Assembly: GCA_041687695.1 (NCBI GenBank) | Contig: JAWLBL010000004.1 | Location: 160,001 to 224,000, forward strand | Length of the DNA stretch: 64,000 nucleotides | Source: Myxococcota bacterium | Lineage (GTDB): Bacteria; Myxococcota_A; UBA9042; PHBI01; JAWLBL01 | Direction: 5' to 3' | In this document: positions 34,743 to 40,652 of the stretch, in pieces | Layout of the letters: every line of letters begins with the position of its first letter | How positions within the stretch are numbered: position 1 is the stretch's first letter | Notes under the pieces: generated by a model | The model's input: the letters and a program-made list of their open reading frames with translations, nothing else | What the model was told of the DNA's origin: nothing | Databases searched by the model: none | Position numbers and translations under genes: made by a program

Positions 34743-36764
34743 GTGGCGCGCCTCGGGGCCCTGCTGGCGCTCGCGCTGACCCTGGCGTCGCCTGCGGCGC
34801 GCGCCTTCGACTACCTCGAGCACGCCTACTTCGCCGACCGCGCCTGCTACGAGGCCCAGCGCCGCCTCGCGCCCCTCGTGACCCCCGCGCGCCCCGACGT
34901 CGTCGCCCGCTACCTCGCCCTCGCGCTCGCCTGTCCCGAGCGCTGGGACCGCCCGTACTGCGCGGACGACCTCAAGCAGGCCGAGGCCGGCCTCAACCGC
35001 CTCGAGGCCCCGCCCGCCGCCAGCGGCGACCACGCCCTCACCCTGGGCGACTTCAGCGCCCTGGTCGACCACCTCGCCTGGTTCGGCCCGGTCGGCGGCT
35101 TCCCACGCGCCCGCCAGCCGGGCCTCACCGCCGAGGTCCTGGCCCTGCTCGGCGCCCCCACCACCTCCGGCGGCCTCATCGAGGACGTCGCCGAGGAGGC
35201 CTGCGACAGCGGCGTCGCCGTCCCCTGGGACCGCGTCGAGCACGACGTCCGCAGCGCCCTCGCGGCCTCGGACGCCAGCGGCGCGCCCGTCGCCGTCCCG
35301 CCCGCGCTGCTCGCCCCCAACCGCCGCGCCAGCCCCCACGCCGGCCCCGTCGACCCCGCCGCGCTCCTGTCCTTCAACAACCCCCACTACCTCGACCTCA
35401 AGCTCCACGGCGACGACCACTTCGGCGTCCGCGCCTTCGGCGCCTGGACCGGCTACCACACCGCCGCCCGCGTCATCGCCGCCAGCCGCTGCCAGGACGT
35501 CCTCGCCGTCGACGCCGACCTGCTCGAGGACCTCGCCGACGGCCTCCCCGCCTTCGCCCGCGTCGACTTCGACGACCTCGCGCCCGCCGAACGCGCCCGC
35601 CAGGGCTGCCTCCTCCTCGCCGAGCGCGTCCGCCGGCGCCTGCTCGACTGGCGGCGCCGCGCCGAGCCCGCCCTCACCGCGCCGGCCGCCCCCTTCCTCG
35701 ACGCCTTCGCCGACGGCCCCGCCACCACCGAGGAGGCGCTGCTGCTCGAGCACGTCGTGACGGCCCTGATGGCCGTGGTCTGGGAGGGCGGAGGGCTCCA
35801 CTTCCTCCAGGACGGCCTCTCCGGCGGTCACCTGCGCACCGACCCGACCTCGCGCGCCGGCCTGGGCGAGATCCGCTACGCCCACGACACCGACGGCCAG
35901 TTCGGCCTCTCGGCCGTCCTCACCACGGCCGCCGGCCACGCGCCGTTCGTCGCCTACGGGGACGGCTTCCTGCTCGGCCGCCCCACCGGCGCGCTCGACA
36001 CCTGCGTCTGGGATCGCTTGGGCGACGCGGGTCAGCCGGACGTCACGGCCTGCCTGGTCCAGCACCAACGCGGGCTGCTGGTCGCCCTGGGGGCCGCGAG
36101 CCTGGTCGACTGGGCCCTGGGCGGCGTGCTGCAGGCGCCTCGCGCCGCCGCCGACGGCTGCTCGACGCCGACCGACGCCCCGCACGCCTTCGTTTGCCGC
36201 TTCCTGCCCCTGCGCGCCGTCGCGGCCGCGGGCTACGAACCCCAGGGCCCGCCGCCCACCGAGCTGGCCGAGGGCACCCTGCCGACCCCGCCGCCTCCCT
36301 TCGCCTACCAGTCGCTGTTGACCGTCCTGGCGGCCGACTTCGGCGGCGACGGCGTGCAGGCTGGCGCGCGCCTGGTCTTCCTGAGCGAGCTCGACGATCT
36401 GGCCAACTGGATGTCCAGCTGGCACTTCGGCCTGCTCACGACCCAGGGCGTGCGCCGCAGCGAGCTGCTGGCCGAGTTCTCCTTCATGTTCCACTGGCGC
36501 TGGGCCGCGCGCTTTCTGGTCAACGCCGGCCCCGTCCTGCACGCCGGCTGGCGCGGCTTCGGCGACGACGTGTCGACCTTCGTCGGCCTCGGCCCCAGCG
36601 TCGGCCTCACCTTCCTGCCGGAAGGCTGGACCAAGATCCCGCTCGAGGCGACCTTCAGCCTGCGCCTGCCCGTGACGCTGCTCGACAGCCGCTTCGGCGC
36701 GGCGGACGGCGTGCGCATCGAGGGCTGGTGGTTCGAGATCGGCGTCGGCCTGGCCTTCATGTGA
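34743..36764 (+). CDS. Secreted protein: zinc phospholipase C-like domain plus C-terminal beta-barrel-like region
   Basis: Signal peptide (ARA/FDYLEH); DHF, HFLQD....GHLR, HD.DG; alternating beta-strand C-terminus. Confidence 0.55.
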   Translation: MARLGALLALALTLASPAARAFDYLEHAYFADRACYEAQRRLAPLVTPARPDVVARYLALALACPERWDRPYCADDLKQAEAGLNRLEAPPAASGDHALTLGDFSALVDHLAWFGPVGGFPRARQPGLTAEVLALLGAPTTSGGLIEDVAEEACDSGVAVPWDRVEHDVRSALAASDASGAPVAVPPALLAPNRRASPHAGPVDPAALLSFNNPHYLDLKLHGDDHFGVRAFGAWTGYHTAARVIAASRCQDVLAVDADLLEDLADGLPAFARVDFDDLAPAERARQGCLLLAERVRRRLLDWRRRAEPALTAPAAPFLDAFADGPATTEEALLLEHVVTALMAVVWEGGGLHFLQDGLSGGHLRTDPTSRAGLGEIRYAHDTDGQFGLSAVLTTAAGHAPFVAYGDGFLLGRPTGALDTCVWDRLGDAGQPDVTACLVQHQRGLLVALGAASLVDWALGGVLQAPRAAADGCSTPTDAPHAFVCRFLPLRAVAAAGYEPQGPPPTELAEGTLPTPPPPFAYQSLLTVLAADFGGDGVQAGARLVFLSELDDLANWMSSWHFGLLTTQGVRRSELLAEFSFMFHWRWAARFLVNAGPVLHAGWRGFGDDVSTFVGLGPSVGLTFLPEGWTKIPLEATFSLRLPVTLLDSRFGAADGVRIEGWWFEIGVGLAFM

Positions 36765-36804
36765 CCGCGGCGCTGGCCGACGCGTGACCGTGGCGCTGGC
36801 CGAC
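36761..36804. repeat. Tandem 21-bp direct repeat (23-bp period) spanning the stop codon
   Basis: GTGACCG(C/T)GGCGCTGGCCGAC at 36761 and 36784. Confidence 0.8.
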
Positions 36805-36940
36805 CGGCCAGGACGGCCAGCCAGCGCCTCGATGCACATCCCTTCGGCCGGAACGCGCCAGGGACGTCGCGGCCTCTCGGTGACCGACGCGCCAGGGACG
36901 CCGGCCGTTGCCCACGCGAGGGCCAGGTCCTCGCGTGCGC

Positions 36941-36975
36941 AAAACAAAAACCCGAACGGCCGAGGCCATCCGGGT
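36941..36975 (-). terminator. Intrinsic terminator of the minus-strand giant RNA
   Basis: Minus strand ACCCGGAUGGC-CUCG-GCCGUUCGGGU followed by UUUUGUUUU; two G-U pairs form only on the minus strand. Confidence 0.85.
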
Positions 36976-36985
36976 CTTTGGGGTT

Positions 36986-39136
36986 GACGAGCACAGCCCT
37001 GTGGGGTGTTCCCCTTCGAAGGGTCTCACGGCCTCCCAGCTGCCACGCCGATGTCACCATCGTCGCGGCCTCCTCTCATCGCGTTGGGCTCGACTTCAGA
37101 GTCTCGGGGTGCCTGCCTGGCGCCGCATGGGTTGAGCGCGCCCACCATGGCCTTGGAGCGAGCTCCGGCCTTCGTGGTCTGCAGCAGGTCACCTGGCGCC
37201 GATGAGGGCTCTCACCGTCGCCGTCCTCTCTTGTCGTTGGCCTCGCGTTCAGAGTTTGACCAGAAGCGTGTGTCCATGGCTCGTGACCTCGTCCTCACGA
37301 CCGTCACGATCCTCGCGTTCCCTTCCGTGCCGGCGCGGACGCCGACTTCCTCCATCTCTCTGACGACCCACCAGCTCGCGGAACCCGGGCTGCCGCCTCC
37401 GGCCCTCCCTGTCGGGAGCGCCGCGCCGTCGGCCAGGCCTCGAGGCGAACCTCTCGGCGTGTCCATCGGGCACGAGGCGAAGAACCAGGCGCCAGCGGAG
37501 TGCCTCGTGGCGCTCCGTGGGCGTCCGCTCGGGGGTCAGACGGCCGACGCGCGTCTCGGGTGGCGATCGACCCTCACAGCGTGAGCGCTGCGAGCGTACG
37601 ATCGAGACCCATGACATCGCGACGGGGTGGTGCGACCTAGGTCGCCTCCGCCATCGTCCGACTCGAGCGAGCTCCCGTCGGAACAGCTCCTCGCGTCCTC
37701 TCGCGCGCCTCGCAGGGGTGGGTCGGGGAGACCCCGCACCACCGTGTCCCGGTCAGACCGGGAGGCCGTGGAGACCACGTCCTCCTTGCCCTCCGCCCTC
37801 GCACCGACCAGCCGCGGAGCGGTGGTTCGATGGTCGAGCGCTCGGGCCTCGCGGACGTCTCCGTCCACGAGCGGCGTCGCCCTCCGACTTCAGCCTGCGA
37901 ACCACGCTCGGTGACCGCCAGGGCCCACCCGAAGGCGAACCGTGACGACCCGCGCGTCCCCTCGTGACCCCGCCGAAGCGGGATCCCCCATGACGCTCTC
38001 GACCGAACCGCCCGCCTCCCGGAGGAGACCCCGTCACTGCCTTGCGAGCAGGGGCGGGTGGCGACTCGAGCCTCGGACGAGCCTCGTGGGTCGATGGGAC
38101 CTGCCGACCAGAGCGCCGCCGCCGCGCCGGGACGAGTCCCGGGAGGCGATGCCGCGCTGGGCGACCGAGGAAGGACCGGCGAGCCGGGCCTTCGTGTCCG
38201 CGAACCGAAGCCATCGTGCGCTGCCTACCGAGCGTCCGAACCGTGGAGCCGTGGCGTCCGAGGGGAAACCCCCCGGCCGTTGCTCCCGCCGGATCGGCCG
38301 TCGACGAAGGCAGCCTGACGCGTGACGCATGCGAGCCGTCGATTGCTTCGGGGCCGGCGGACCGAGGTCCGCGTGGCCCCGCCGGGCCCTCGCCATCGTC
38401 CGGGTCTCCCCGGGGTCGCTGGCCAAGGCCGACGCGTGGAGCGGTCGAAGCGGCTGTCGCCGGTTCGAGCCGCGTTCCATGGGCTCGTGTGTCGCATTGA
38501 TGAGAGATGTCGGGCCGGAAAGGGTCGCTCGAATCGATCCGCTCGCGCGGACGCATCGGAGCCGGACGCCCTCCCTTGGGGTTTGGTACCCTTCGACGCT
38601 TGCGGAAGCGAGCAGCGACCCACACCGGGGTTGCCTCCCCCGGCTGAGCTGCGCCTTCAGGTTTTCTCAACCTCTTGACGCCTTGTTCCGCTCGCGACCT
38701 CTCCGGCCTTGTTTCATGCCGGTAACGCCCTTGGGCTTTGCACCTTCAGAGGGTTTCCCCCACCGGTAGCGGGCCTCGCCTCTCGACGACGCCTGCCCTT
38801 CTTGCCGTTCGAATGCCCGGATTCGACAGTAGCCAGGATACCGCTGTCCTCCGTGCCTCGACTTCAAGGATTTACGCATCCGATGGGTCCGTACCGTTCG
38901 GGCCGGTGTTACCCGGGCTCCGAAGGCCGATCCTCTCCTGGCGTTCACCTCTTCGAGGTGTTCCCCCCCTTGGCCTCGGCTTCATGTCTCCATGAAGCCT
39001 CCTCTCTTGGGCTTCGACACGACGCTGAACGGCGAACCGTCCATCGTCGTATGTGCTCTTCAAAGTTTTAAAGAACCAAGGGAGTGGCTTGCCTCTTGCG
39101 AGTGCTGCCGACCTCCATGAGGTTCGTGTCCTCGTC
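36986..39136 (-). ncRNA. Putative giant (~2.15 kb) multi-domain structured non-coding RNA
   Basis: No credible ORF or codon periodicity; terminal helix 39126-39136/36986-36994; nine GAA/A(A,U,G)G internal-loop helices; UUCG/CUCG/GNRA hairpins on the minus strand; terminator downstream. Confidence 0.75.
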
Positions 39137-39203
39137 GGTCCGCGCGAGGCGGGCCGTGTCGGACCTCCCTTGGGCCGCGCTCCCTGGCGTCAACCCTGAG
39201 GCG

Positions 39204-39233
39204 ATAGTGGATCGCCCGACGGAGCTGCCGCAA
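39204..39233 (-). promoter_or_regulatory. Candidate sigma70-type promoter for the giant RNA
   Basis: Minus strand TTGCGG-N18-CACTAT about 70 nt upstream of the terminal helix. Confidence 0.3.
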
Positions 39234-39256
39234 CCCGAATTTTCGGGGGGCGCCGG

Positions 39257-39320
39257 CTGTGGAAAACCAAGCTGTAGGGAAGTCGCGCACTTTCGCACCG
39301 TCTCCCCAAGTTGTCCACAG
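39257..39320. promoter_or_regulatory. Inverted pair of DnaA-box-like sites
   Basis: TGTGGAAAA (39258-39266; reverse complement TTTTCCACA) and TTGTCCACA (39311-39319). Confidence 0.55.
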
Positions 39321-39608
39321 GAAAGCCACACGTCCGCGCGATCGGCCTGCGCCGCACCCGGTGGCCGCGAGAGCATCGCAAGTGCCTGTTTTCACGTGCG
39401 ATCCGGGACGCGGCCCCGTGTCGCGCCGCAAAAGGGTGCCTCGGACGGCCACACGGGGCCGAAGGGCAGGGCGCGGACGCGGCGCCCTCGGGCGCGCTTC
39501 GGGGCGGGCGTTCGCGCGATGCCCACGCGCGATTGGCGTGATGGGGCGCCTGCGCGCGAAGCGCGTGATGGTTGACGGCGGAGGCGCGCGTCGCTACAGG
39601 CCAGCGCC

Positions 39609-40652
39609 ATGGACCTGCCCGGCTACCAGCTCGACGCGCTCCGCGTCCACCCCGGCCTCGTGCTCGCGCCCATGAGCGGCGTCACCGACTCGCCCTTTCG
39701 CCGCTTGGTCAAGGCGGCCAGCGGCGACGCCGTGGGCCTCGTCGTCAGCGAGTTCCTCTCGATCGAGGCGCTCACCCGCCGCGAGCTGCGCAGCATGGTC
39801 CGGCTGGCCTTCCACCCCGAGGAGCGGCCCGTCGGCATCCAGATCTTCGGCGCCGACCCGGTCAAGATGGCCGAGGCCGCCAAGATCGTCGAGGACGCCG
39901 GCGCGGATCTGGTCGACATCAACTGCGGCTGCCCGGCTCCCAAGGTCGTCAAGCGCGGCGGCGGCGCCGGCCTCCTCCGCACCCTGCCGGCGCTGGCCGA
40001 CATCCTGCGCGCCGTGGTCCCGGCGGTCTCGATCCCCGTCACCATCAAGATCCGCAACGGCTGGGACGAGCACACCATCAACGCCCACGACACCCTCGAG
40101 CTGGCGCAGGACTTCGGCGCGCGCGCGGTCGCGATCCACGGCCGCACCCGGATGCAGCTCTACCGCGGCGAGGCCGACTGGGACATCGTCGGCGCGCTCA
40201 AGCAGGCCTCGCGGCTGCCCATCATCGGCTCCGGCGACATCGCGACGCCCGCCGACGCCCGCCGGCGCCTGGCCGACACGGGCTGCGACGGCGTCATGGT
40301 CGGCCGGGGCGCCATCATGAACCCCTGGATCTTCCGCCAGGTCGCCGACGAGCTGGCCGGCCGCGCGCCCACGGTGCCGACCTGGCGCGACAAGATCGCG
40401 CTCCTCGAGCGCTACCGCCAGATGCTGACCGAGATCTACCCGCCCAAGGTCCTGCCGGGCCGGATGCGGATGATGCTCTCGCGCCTCATCAAGGGCTTCC
40501 CGGGCGCGGCCGAGGTCCGCCTGACCTGCGTCAAGATGGACGCGCCCGAGGCGATGCTGGCCACGCTGTCCGAGGCCTGCGAGCGCCTCGAGATCCTGGA
40601 CGCGCCGGCCGTCAGCGTAGACCCGCGCGCCGGCGTCGCCGAGGCGGCCTGA
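39609..40652 (+). CDS. dusB: tRNA-dihydrouridine synthase
   Basis: LAPMSGVTD, DINCGCP, IHGRT, GDI, MVGRG. Confidence 0.9.
   Translation: MDLPGYQLDALRVHPGLVLAPMSGVTDSPFRRLVKAASGDAVGLVVSEFLSIEALTRRELRSMVRLAFHPEERPVGIQIFGADPVKMAEAAKIVEDAGADLVDINCGCPAPKVVKRGGGAGLLRTLPALADILRAVVPAVSIPVTIKIRNGWDEHTINAHDTLELAQDFGARAVAIHGRTRMQLYRGEADWDIVGALKQASRLPIIGSGDIATPADARRRLADTGCDGVMVGRGAIMNPWIFRQVADELAGRAPTVPTWRDKIALLERYRQMLTEIYPPKVLPGRMRMMLSRLIKGFPGAAEVRLTCVKMDAPEAMLATLSEACERLEILDAPAVSVDPRAGVAEAA

Follow-up and report, generated by a model that had tools for sequence, protein, structure and literature searches.

A two-repeat helix within a large, modular and apparently undescribed RNA from a Myxococcota genome

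Few bacterial noncoding RNAs as large and complex as the one described here are known, and those that have been studied are ribozymes, RNP scaffolds or RNA cages. CsrB and RsmZ are protein-sponge RNAs whose sites are GGA sequences in hairpin loops, and the Dictyoglomi-1 RNA carries repeated E-loops. The latter (RF01703) is listed in the excerpted text of PMC2864571. RNA cages are among the large structured bacterial RNAs presented in the sections of PMC12286853 considered here, and these sections, together with those of PMC12990946, describe GOLLD, ROOL and OLE as assembling protein-free via A-minor and kissing contacts. For the Rev response element (RRE) of HIV, the part of PMC4488727 dealing with stem IIB describes a site in which a bulged U lies between G-A and G-G pairs and the major groove is widened. 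According to the excerpt of 10.1101/098723, trans A·A and G·G pairs are isosteric and generally show no covariation, the exception being the Rev-bound site, where the contact is with the backbone only.

The locus compared here with these systems lies in a window of 64,000 nucleotides (positions 160,001 to 224,000 of contig JAWLBL010000004.1, assembly GCA_041687695.1, Myxococcota bacterium), to which all coordinates refer. It apparently encodes an undescribed, abundant and modular RNA of 1–3 kb. The comparison with Rfam 15 gave no match at the gathering score across the window; matches were at chance level in 36700–39700 and in six homologue loci free of the expansion described below, and none was obtained at E ≤ 1 in ten further loci. 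The literature searched, with subscription-journal papers and supplements outside its scope, contained no description of the RNA, and it is rather unlikely that part of it has already been described in such sources and never deposited in Rfam.

Extent and transcription of the RNA gene

The gap between 36765 and 39608, with a convergent 673-aa ORF on one side and a divergent Dus-family gene on the other, contained no ORF with coding bias. The whole noncoding RNA gene was placed within it at 36981–39197 of the minus strand, based on contigs from RNA-sequencing runs, the absence of such an ORF and the homologues. Its size is about 2.2 kb here and about 0.95–1.1 kb in most homologues. The convergent ORF (34743–36764, plus strand) has a signal-peptide-like start and no Pfam match.

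Contigs from three RNA runs, X1, X2 and X3, covered 36982–39188, 37018–39172 and 36986–39179, respectively, and a fourth study yielded 36970–38677 together with 38706–39072. The contigs of the four studies differed from the unit by about 2–3%, the flanking genes being represented only by short foreign matches, and one contig ran into adapter at 39188. The evidence for the unit being a discrete abundant transcript is strong but indirect, as such contigs are blind to strand and level and the runs had been selected because they contained this stretch. Runs X9–X19, whose share of words was small, were left out of this analysis. The RNA was readily recovered from sequenced community RNA of sludge, roots, water and compost. 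The X2 contig links 39172 to 37018, i.e., the 3' end to the 5' end, which corresponds to a circular form or a library artefact; this joint was absent from the other three RNA runs and from the metagenome loci listed (at least 120). Of the whole contigs from the metagenome collection, 33 of 54 were parsed with both repeats, and 29 of these 33 stopped 50–100 nt past repeat copy 2, where the predicted distance was 81 nt; these contigs appear to derive from RNA. The locus is very probably a structured noncoding RNA gene.

At the ends of the gene, an 8-bp terminal stem is formed by 39189–39196 with 36988–36981 (minus strand), with equivalent stems seen by eye in two homologues (L002 and L004). It is followed by an intrinsic terminator, a GC-rich hairpin with a U tract (36941–36975, minus strand), which has counterparts in homologues. 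A putative sigma70-type promoter, TTGCGG and CACTAT separated by 18 nt, was assigned to 39204–39233 of the minus strand on the strength of better matches at the corresponding position in the homologues L008 and L010, a promoter consensus scan having found no site here. Upstream of it, at 39258–39319 (strand not assigned), two 9-mers resemble the DnaA box consensus. Of 31 genomic loci, 19 had such 9-mers, with at most one mismatch, at a distance of 600–1050 nt upstream from the core anchor, as against 2.9% of random 450-nt windows and none of 61 tRNA/tmRNA upstream regions, both controls being from this one genome. The RNA gene is possibly under DnaA-linked control.

Pairing between the two repeats

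The original prediction had drawn attention to two 31-nt near-repeats on the minus strand. Both are present, copy 1 at 37255–37225 and copy 2 at 37102–37072, and they are identical at 25 of 31 positions. A pattern search with the repeat scaffold detected just these two sites in the whole 7.97-Mb genome, and 30 dinucleotide-shuffled versions of the element never yielded two 31-mers matching at 25 or more positions.

The copies were predicted to pair with each other through variable 4-mers that are complementary across the copies and do not match within a copy. In the minimum free energy (MFE) fold of the reverse complement of 37060–37270, copy 1 was indeed paired with copy 2 (z = -2.8). Constrained folding gave -87.3 kcal/mol for the cross-pairing vs. 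-73.8 kcal/mol for the self-pairing, a difference of 13.5 kcal/mol in favor of the former, and the four cross helices had pair probabilities of 0.90–1.0. The cofold energies were -27.4 for copy 1 with copy 2, -19.3 for copy 1 with copy 1 and -15.8 for copy 2 with copy 2; copy 2 by itself folded, with its register shifted, into a weak hairpin (-6.2). The CUCU/AGAG ends are invariant and compatible with either pairing, so the discrimination between the two pairings rests on the variable 4-mers alone.

Homologues were collected from related genomes, from named genomes scanned with a pattern (21 stretches) and from metagenome contigs (at least 120 stretches). Outside the metagenome scan, 76 loci with the core anchor were reduced to 34 distinct ones. 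With the metagenome loci added (at least 120), 83 loci had a profile match for the repeat domain; 70 of these were long enough, 61 were parsed by the scaffold alone and 59 were distinct. Across these 59 homologues the variable 4-mers were paired between the copies in 97% and 95% of cells and within a copy in 42% and 42%, in line with the predicted pattern. The reciprocal covariation expected from it was also found, with 413 of 472 cross-pairing cells being Watson–Crick as against 238 ± 10 (maximum 272) in 2000 partner shuffles of the 59 distinct sequences, figures that are not probabilities because the homologue sequences are related. In a separate alignment of 12 sequences, the cross structure was 98.4% paired with 17 double-change cells, and the self structure was 67.7% paired with 3 double-change cells.

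The central GGC/GCC pairing, also part of the predicted helix, fared less well. Present in the MFE fold here, it is weakly conserved in homologues, its Watson–Crick length averaging 2.41 vs. 2.10 ± 0.09 for shuffled partners, with 25 of 59 having 3 bp or more. The middle segment between the two loops measured 6–9 nt, mainly 7, in the homologues. The two repeats almost certainly pair with each other. They pair inside the fold of one RNA molecule, where they form the stalk of domain IV, and the two-repeat helix is evolutionarily selected.

A recurrent loop module and the domain architecture

The two-repeat helix is a two-module arm and a small part of the 2.2-kb RNA gene. Corrected mutual information was calculated for 57 sequences (effective number 54, mean identity 53%) from MAFFT alignments of related sequences, many of them recovered with one fixed 23–24-nt pattern, and revealed about 20 clear helices, the top covarying ones being mainly the 4-bp flanks of one loop type. 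The module consists of AA, 4 bp, a 3x3 loop with GAA opposite ANG and a further 4 bp, and it occurs at ten positions (M1–M10), the 4-bp helix ending at the fifth position in most of them. Four domains surround a central junction, their entrances formed by M2, M3, M5 and M7. The two loops of the repeat helix correspond to M8 and M9, located head to head; sequence and covariation assign the M8 GAA strand and the M9 ANG strand to copy 1 (37225–37255, minus strand), and the M9 GAA strand and the M8 ANG strand to copy 2 (37072–37102, minus strand). Each repeat is a unit of GAA strand, linker, AA and ANG strand; two such units paired reciprocally give the two-fold helix, and similar units in a ring give the central junction. 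The two back-to-back motif loops of the symmetric element in the original prediction were thereby recovered, whereas the symmetry is not a special feature, as the module is found about eight more times, mainly without two-fold symmetry.

Module-like sites numbered 9 in the 0.93-kb core, where 100 shuffles gave a mean of 0.36 (maximum 2), and 1 in the expansion. A 3'-domain profile also recognized domain II (E 5e-7 to 1e-4) in three of the homologues, a hint that duplication occurred within the RNA. With a repeat-unit profile, just the two repeats were significant, units of the central junction giving E values of 7–10; since this short-unit profile misses the other units, their common origin rests on structure, not on sequence.

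The domains were placed by covariation, all on the minus strand. Domain I (38948–39124) contains M2 (39124–39112 with 38958–38948) and a partial M1 (39065–39055 with 39014–39002), the inner helix of which is weak. The 5' arm of a candidate long-range pseudoknot, 39052–39058 with 36995–36989 (minus strand), competes with this inner helix. At least 7 bp of the candidate pseudoknot could be formed in 24 of 40 homologues vs. an average of 13 (maximum 20) with shuffled partners, and M1 may alternate with this pseudoknot to the 3' end. Domain II (38741–38945) comprises M3 (38945–38933 with 38751–38741) and M4 (38869–38859 with 38809–38797). Domain III (38588–38738), the most conserved core, is composed of M5 (38738–38726 with 38598–38588), the hairpin 38722–38703 and M6 (38680–38670 with 38662–38652), capped by a T-loop-like UGAGA-AA loop; in this domain, 99.7% of 952 cells were paired and double changes occurred in 12 of 14 pairs. 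The conserved loops at 38663–38670 and 38708–38717 resemble T-loops and are maybe tertiary docking sites or an interdigitated pair.

Domain IV, holding the expansion and the repeat helix, is closed by M7, whose GAA strand (37011–37021) pairs with the AA and ANG strand (38571–38583) at the central junction; a pairing of 37011–37021 with 39165–39174 was replaced by this one on covariation. Inside the part closed by the repeats, M10 (37142–37177) is formed by 37177–37167 with 37154–37142, and the homologue alignment contains a conserved hairpin at 37120–37139 with an AACCAAU-like conserved loop. The expansion (37261–38566) is a lineage-specific segment of about 1.3 kb, hairpin-rich and nearly module-free, which is absent from relatives and lies under the RNA contigs, i.e., is transcribed. 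In the relatives, 39100–38567 is conserved and is followed almost directly by 37261–36930, so the 1.3 kb is extra in this genome. Among the first 40 strain differences listed, 39 were located in the expansion, and on its MFE fold 17 were unpaired, 10 kept a pair (with two compensatory pairs) and 12 broke one.

The loop itself was characterized by pooling the ten modules (557 cells). The G1·G3' position was GG in 494 cells, AA in 31, GA in 10 and CA in 7, and A3·A1' was AA in 450 and GG in 54. The middle loop positions vary freely, with the middle A of GAA replaced in 196 of the 557 cells, and 430 of 500 cells had AA ahead of the ANG strand. The switch from A·A to G·G at M6 was within the ten strongest covarying pairs of the RNA. 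Judging from covariation, the outer positions would form two non-canonical, interchangeable purine–purine pairs (G·G and A·A) flanking a free middle position, and these pairs may be trans and distort the backbone around the free middle nucleotide.

The strand sequences of the kink-turn or box C/D motif and of the 11-nt GAAA-tetraloop receptor served for comparison, as the loop strands read like the CUGA and AUGA of the kink-turn and resemble the two strands of the receptor. The kink-turn or box C/D assignment was rejected because the A expected as second partner in the tandem G·A pairs beside its 3-nt bulge covaries in the Watson–Crick manner (U-A 50, C-G 8 and U-G 1 of 59), and both the kink-turn and the tetraloop-receptor readings fall since covariation sets another register, in which the A following ANG is part of a Watson–Crick pair switching from U-A to C-G, leaving a symmetric 3x3 loop.

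Occurrence, possible function and relation to known RNAs

The distribution was searched with an 80-position core model, weak matches being lost under stricter filters. Within the class, 38 of 107 genomes matched the model, as did 24 of 150 in a sample of the phylum; carriers had 1–4 copies each, this genome having one. The named records were mostly Myxococcota or Deltaproteobacteria assemblies; single assemblies labeled Planctomycetota, Acidobacteria, Pseudomonadota and Enterobacteriaceae also carried the RNA and are possibly mis-binned. A short variant was present in the cultured Enhygromyxa salina. Copy 1 was 138–276 nt away from the core in 43 of 59 homologues, 1417 nt away here and about 2380 nt away in L040, and two values of 1215 belonged to the second copies of tandem genes. 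Larger RNAs are implied for L040, L117, L169 and L135 (contigs of 4–5 kb), and in some variants the expansion is upstream of the core. The contigs of L118, L158 and L159 each carry a tandem of two diverged copies of the RNA gene, with a gap of about 80 nt in L118. Weak BLAST matches to the GC-rich expansion (L019, L021 and L022) were treated as chance.

Shorter or divergent variants were seen in L027, L043, L045, L224, L263, L226 and L227. The short variants lack domains I–II, with L043, L045, L226 and L227 starting at domain III, and some directly precede CBS, groEL or other genes. Sigma54-like promoters were noticed by eye in L043, L045, L224 and L263; L027, L043 and L045 adjoin CBS-domain, Usp or groEL genes, and L027 is located upstream of an ORF which, by eye, resembles a ribosome-hibernation protein. 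The promoters and neighbors of the short variants suggest expression under stress or in dormancy. In L024, a bidirectional terminator-like hairpin (440–551) had a weak, chance-level score against the Rfam Thr_leader.

When the 758 ORFs flanking 136 loci were compared all against all, synteny was seen at the clade level only (tolB, Bax1-I and uvrA). No reverse transcriptase, transposase, integrase or phage family was detected among 69 flanking ORFs, and the RNA was absent from the 50,697 phage records, the plasmid records and the viral contigs searched.

A multi-site protein-binding scaffold or sponge is the reading of the whole mechanism that we tentatively put first, at somewhat less than an even chance. 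The distorted backbone of the loop could open the major groove, and the same loop geometry, kept about ten times in different contexts, would be the binding site for one host protein, since one geometry kept ten times favors one reader and, with it, a scaffold or sponge with many sites. In its mode of action, this abundant ribonucleoprotein scaffold or sponge with many sites would resemble CsrB or the Rev response element of HIV. A putative protein site at each of the two loops of the repeat helix is plausible, and a protein dimer might be accommodated by the two sites lying head to head; as the loop–loop spacing is conserved, a dimeric binder is compatible with the helix. Among the flanking genes, no candidate partner protein was found and no family recurred across clades. 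The patchy distribution (38 of 107) and the 1–4 copies per genome are unlike those expected for a core RNP, and the recurrent loops can be purely architectural.

An architecture made of RNA alone is ranked second, as a close rival with a real though smaller chance. The module would then be a bend or docking element, and ten copies would give the folded RNA the form of a compact particle or of a GOLLD/ROOL-like homo-oligomeric cage, with the adenosines and the flanking AA as A-minor donors, or the module receiving GNRA or T-loops, and with the expansions as peripheral or interior loops. Such a role is consistent with the AA always facing a junction or loop at a constant 4 bp from the 3x3 loop, with the conservation of several GNRA-type and T-loop-like loops, with the candidate pseudoknot and with the lack of a linked protein gene, and the excerpts of PMC12286853 and PMC12990946 report self-assembly of GOLLD, ROOL and OLE without protein. 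However, kissing-loop covariation is absent from the top 70 pairs, the replacement of the middle A of GAA in more than a third of cells (196 of 557) is odd for an obligatory A-minor donor, and short variants without domains I–II occur.

It is improbable that the locus is a catalytic or selfish RNA, such as a non-autonomous mobile element or an intron-like or circular RNA, with modules serving folding or processing. The patchy distribution with 1–4 copies, the tandem paralogues (L118 and L158), the varied neighbors and the one RNA contig with the 39172–37018 joint would fit such an element, but the 69 flanking ORFs are free of reverse transcriptase, transposase and integrase, no Rfam intron or ribozyme match was obtained, the synteny (tolB, Bax1-I and uvrA) is inherited within clades, and none was found in the phage and plasmid records or viral contigs. 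The joint itself comes from one contig of one study, with no permuted contig among the metagenome loci listed (at least 120).

Still less probable is the use of the pseudo-symmetric helix for strand exchange and dimerization of two RNA molecules, which the original prediction had offered and which gained no specific support. Pairing of copy 1 with copy 2 between molecules gives the same base pairs and is indistinguishable from the intramolecular form by covariation, and OLE and ARRPOF are tabulated as natural homodimers in the part of PMC12990946 considered. Against this, the helix is nested in an intramolecular domain, with M10 inside and M7 (38571–38583/37011–37021) closing it outside, the most stable duplex was copy 1–copy 2 in 49 of 59 homologues, and the symmetry follows from the reuse of a module found about eight more times. 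Symmetric copy 1–copy 1 or copy 2–copy 2 dimers are likewise not supported, as they need a self-complementarity that is lacking in the homologues (42%) and homotypic pairing is not conserved. Chance similarity, or an element acting at the level of DNA (an operator pair or repeat), is essentially refuted: a GC-rich region folds easily and RNA libraries may carry DNA, but the compensatory changes, including G-U wobbles, the contigs restricted to the unit in four studies and the shuffle controls speak against it.

On balance, the locus probably represents an undescribed bacterial RNA class, among the largest outside rRNA (about 1 to >3 kb), that arose from the repeated duplication of one 27–31-nt unit making a new 3x3 loop motif. 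With an rRNA-like tolerance of kilobase expansions and an abundance sufficient for end-to-end assembly from community RNA, unlike the neighboring mRNAs, it would function, in Myxococcota and some further phyla, as a scaffold with ten sites or as a particle assembling by itself. As a candidate for a new recurrent RNA motif, the repeated loop is available in ten natural replicates in each molecule, which makes the loop geometry and its partner directly testable on a 60-nt duplex, the two-repeat helix.

Several known RNAs and partners were considered and set aside. A divergent RNase P RNA, 6S RNA or tmRNA was rejected as the genome has all three elsewhere, and a retron, DRT or group II intron RNA as no RT family occurs in the 69 flanking ORFs and no Rfam intron match was obtained. 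A riboswitch or cis-regulatory leader was dismissed because the terminator faces a convergent gene here and the downstream genes vary in family and strand. CsrA had no PF02599 match in this genome and was detected in 6 of 107 genomes of the class; Ro60 (TROVE), the protein of the Y RNA RNP, was detected in 1 of 107, which was not this one.

CsrB and RsmZ are similar to the present RNA in having many short purine-rich sites per transcript and their own promoter and terminator, whereas the sites here are base-paired internal loops and not GGA hairpin loops. The Dictyoglomi-1 RNA is likewise a bacterial RNA with repeated internal-loop modules, but its loop type differs, the RNA here is far larger and it has no Rfam match. 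Stem IIB of HIV-1's Rev response element, as described in the excerpts of PMC4488727 and 10.1101/098723, is a functional analogy, with several purine-rich internal loops per RNA, two purine–purine pairs round a free nucleotide and G·G swapping with A·A; its origin is unrelated, and the present RNA has a 3x3 loop in which G·G is combined with A·A instead of G·A and which has a fixed AA 4 bp off. GOLLD, ROOL and OLE, in the sections of PMC12286853 and PMC5737381 considered, are alike in being long, highly structured, stand-alone noncoding RNAs of unknown function with many multi-way junctions. They measure about 0.6–0.85 kb, in contrast to about 1 to >3 kb here, and differ from the present RNA with its about ten copies of one loop module. 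GOLLD and ROOL are often found in phages or prophages and near tRNA genes, whereas this RNA is chromosomal, in Myxococcota and others, with neither link seen and no tRNA in the window. If counted as a kind, it is a new family within the large ornate RNAs of unknown function and a member of no existing family.
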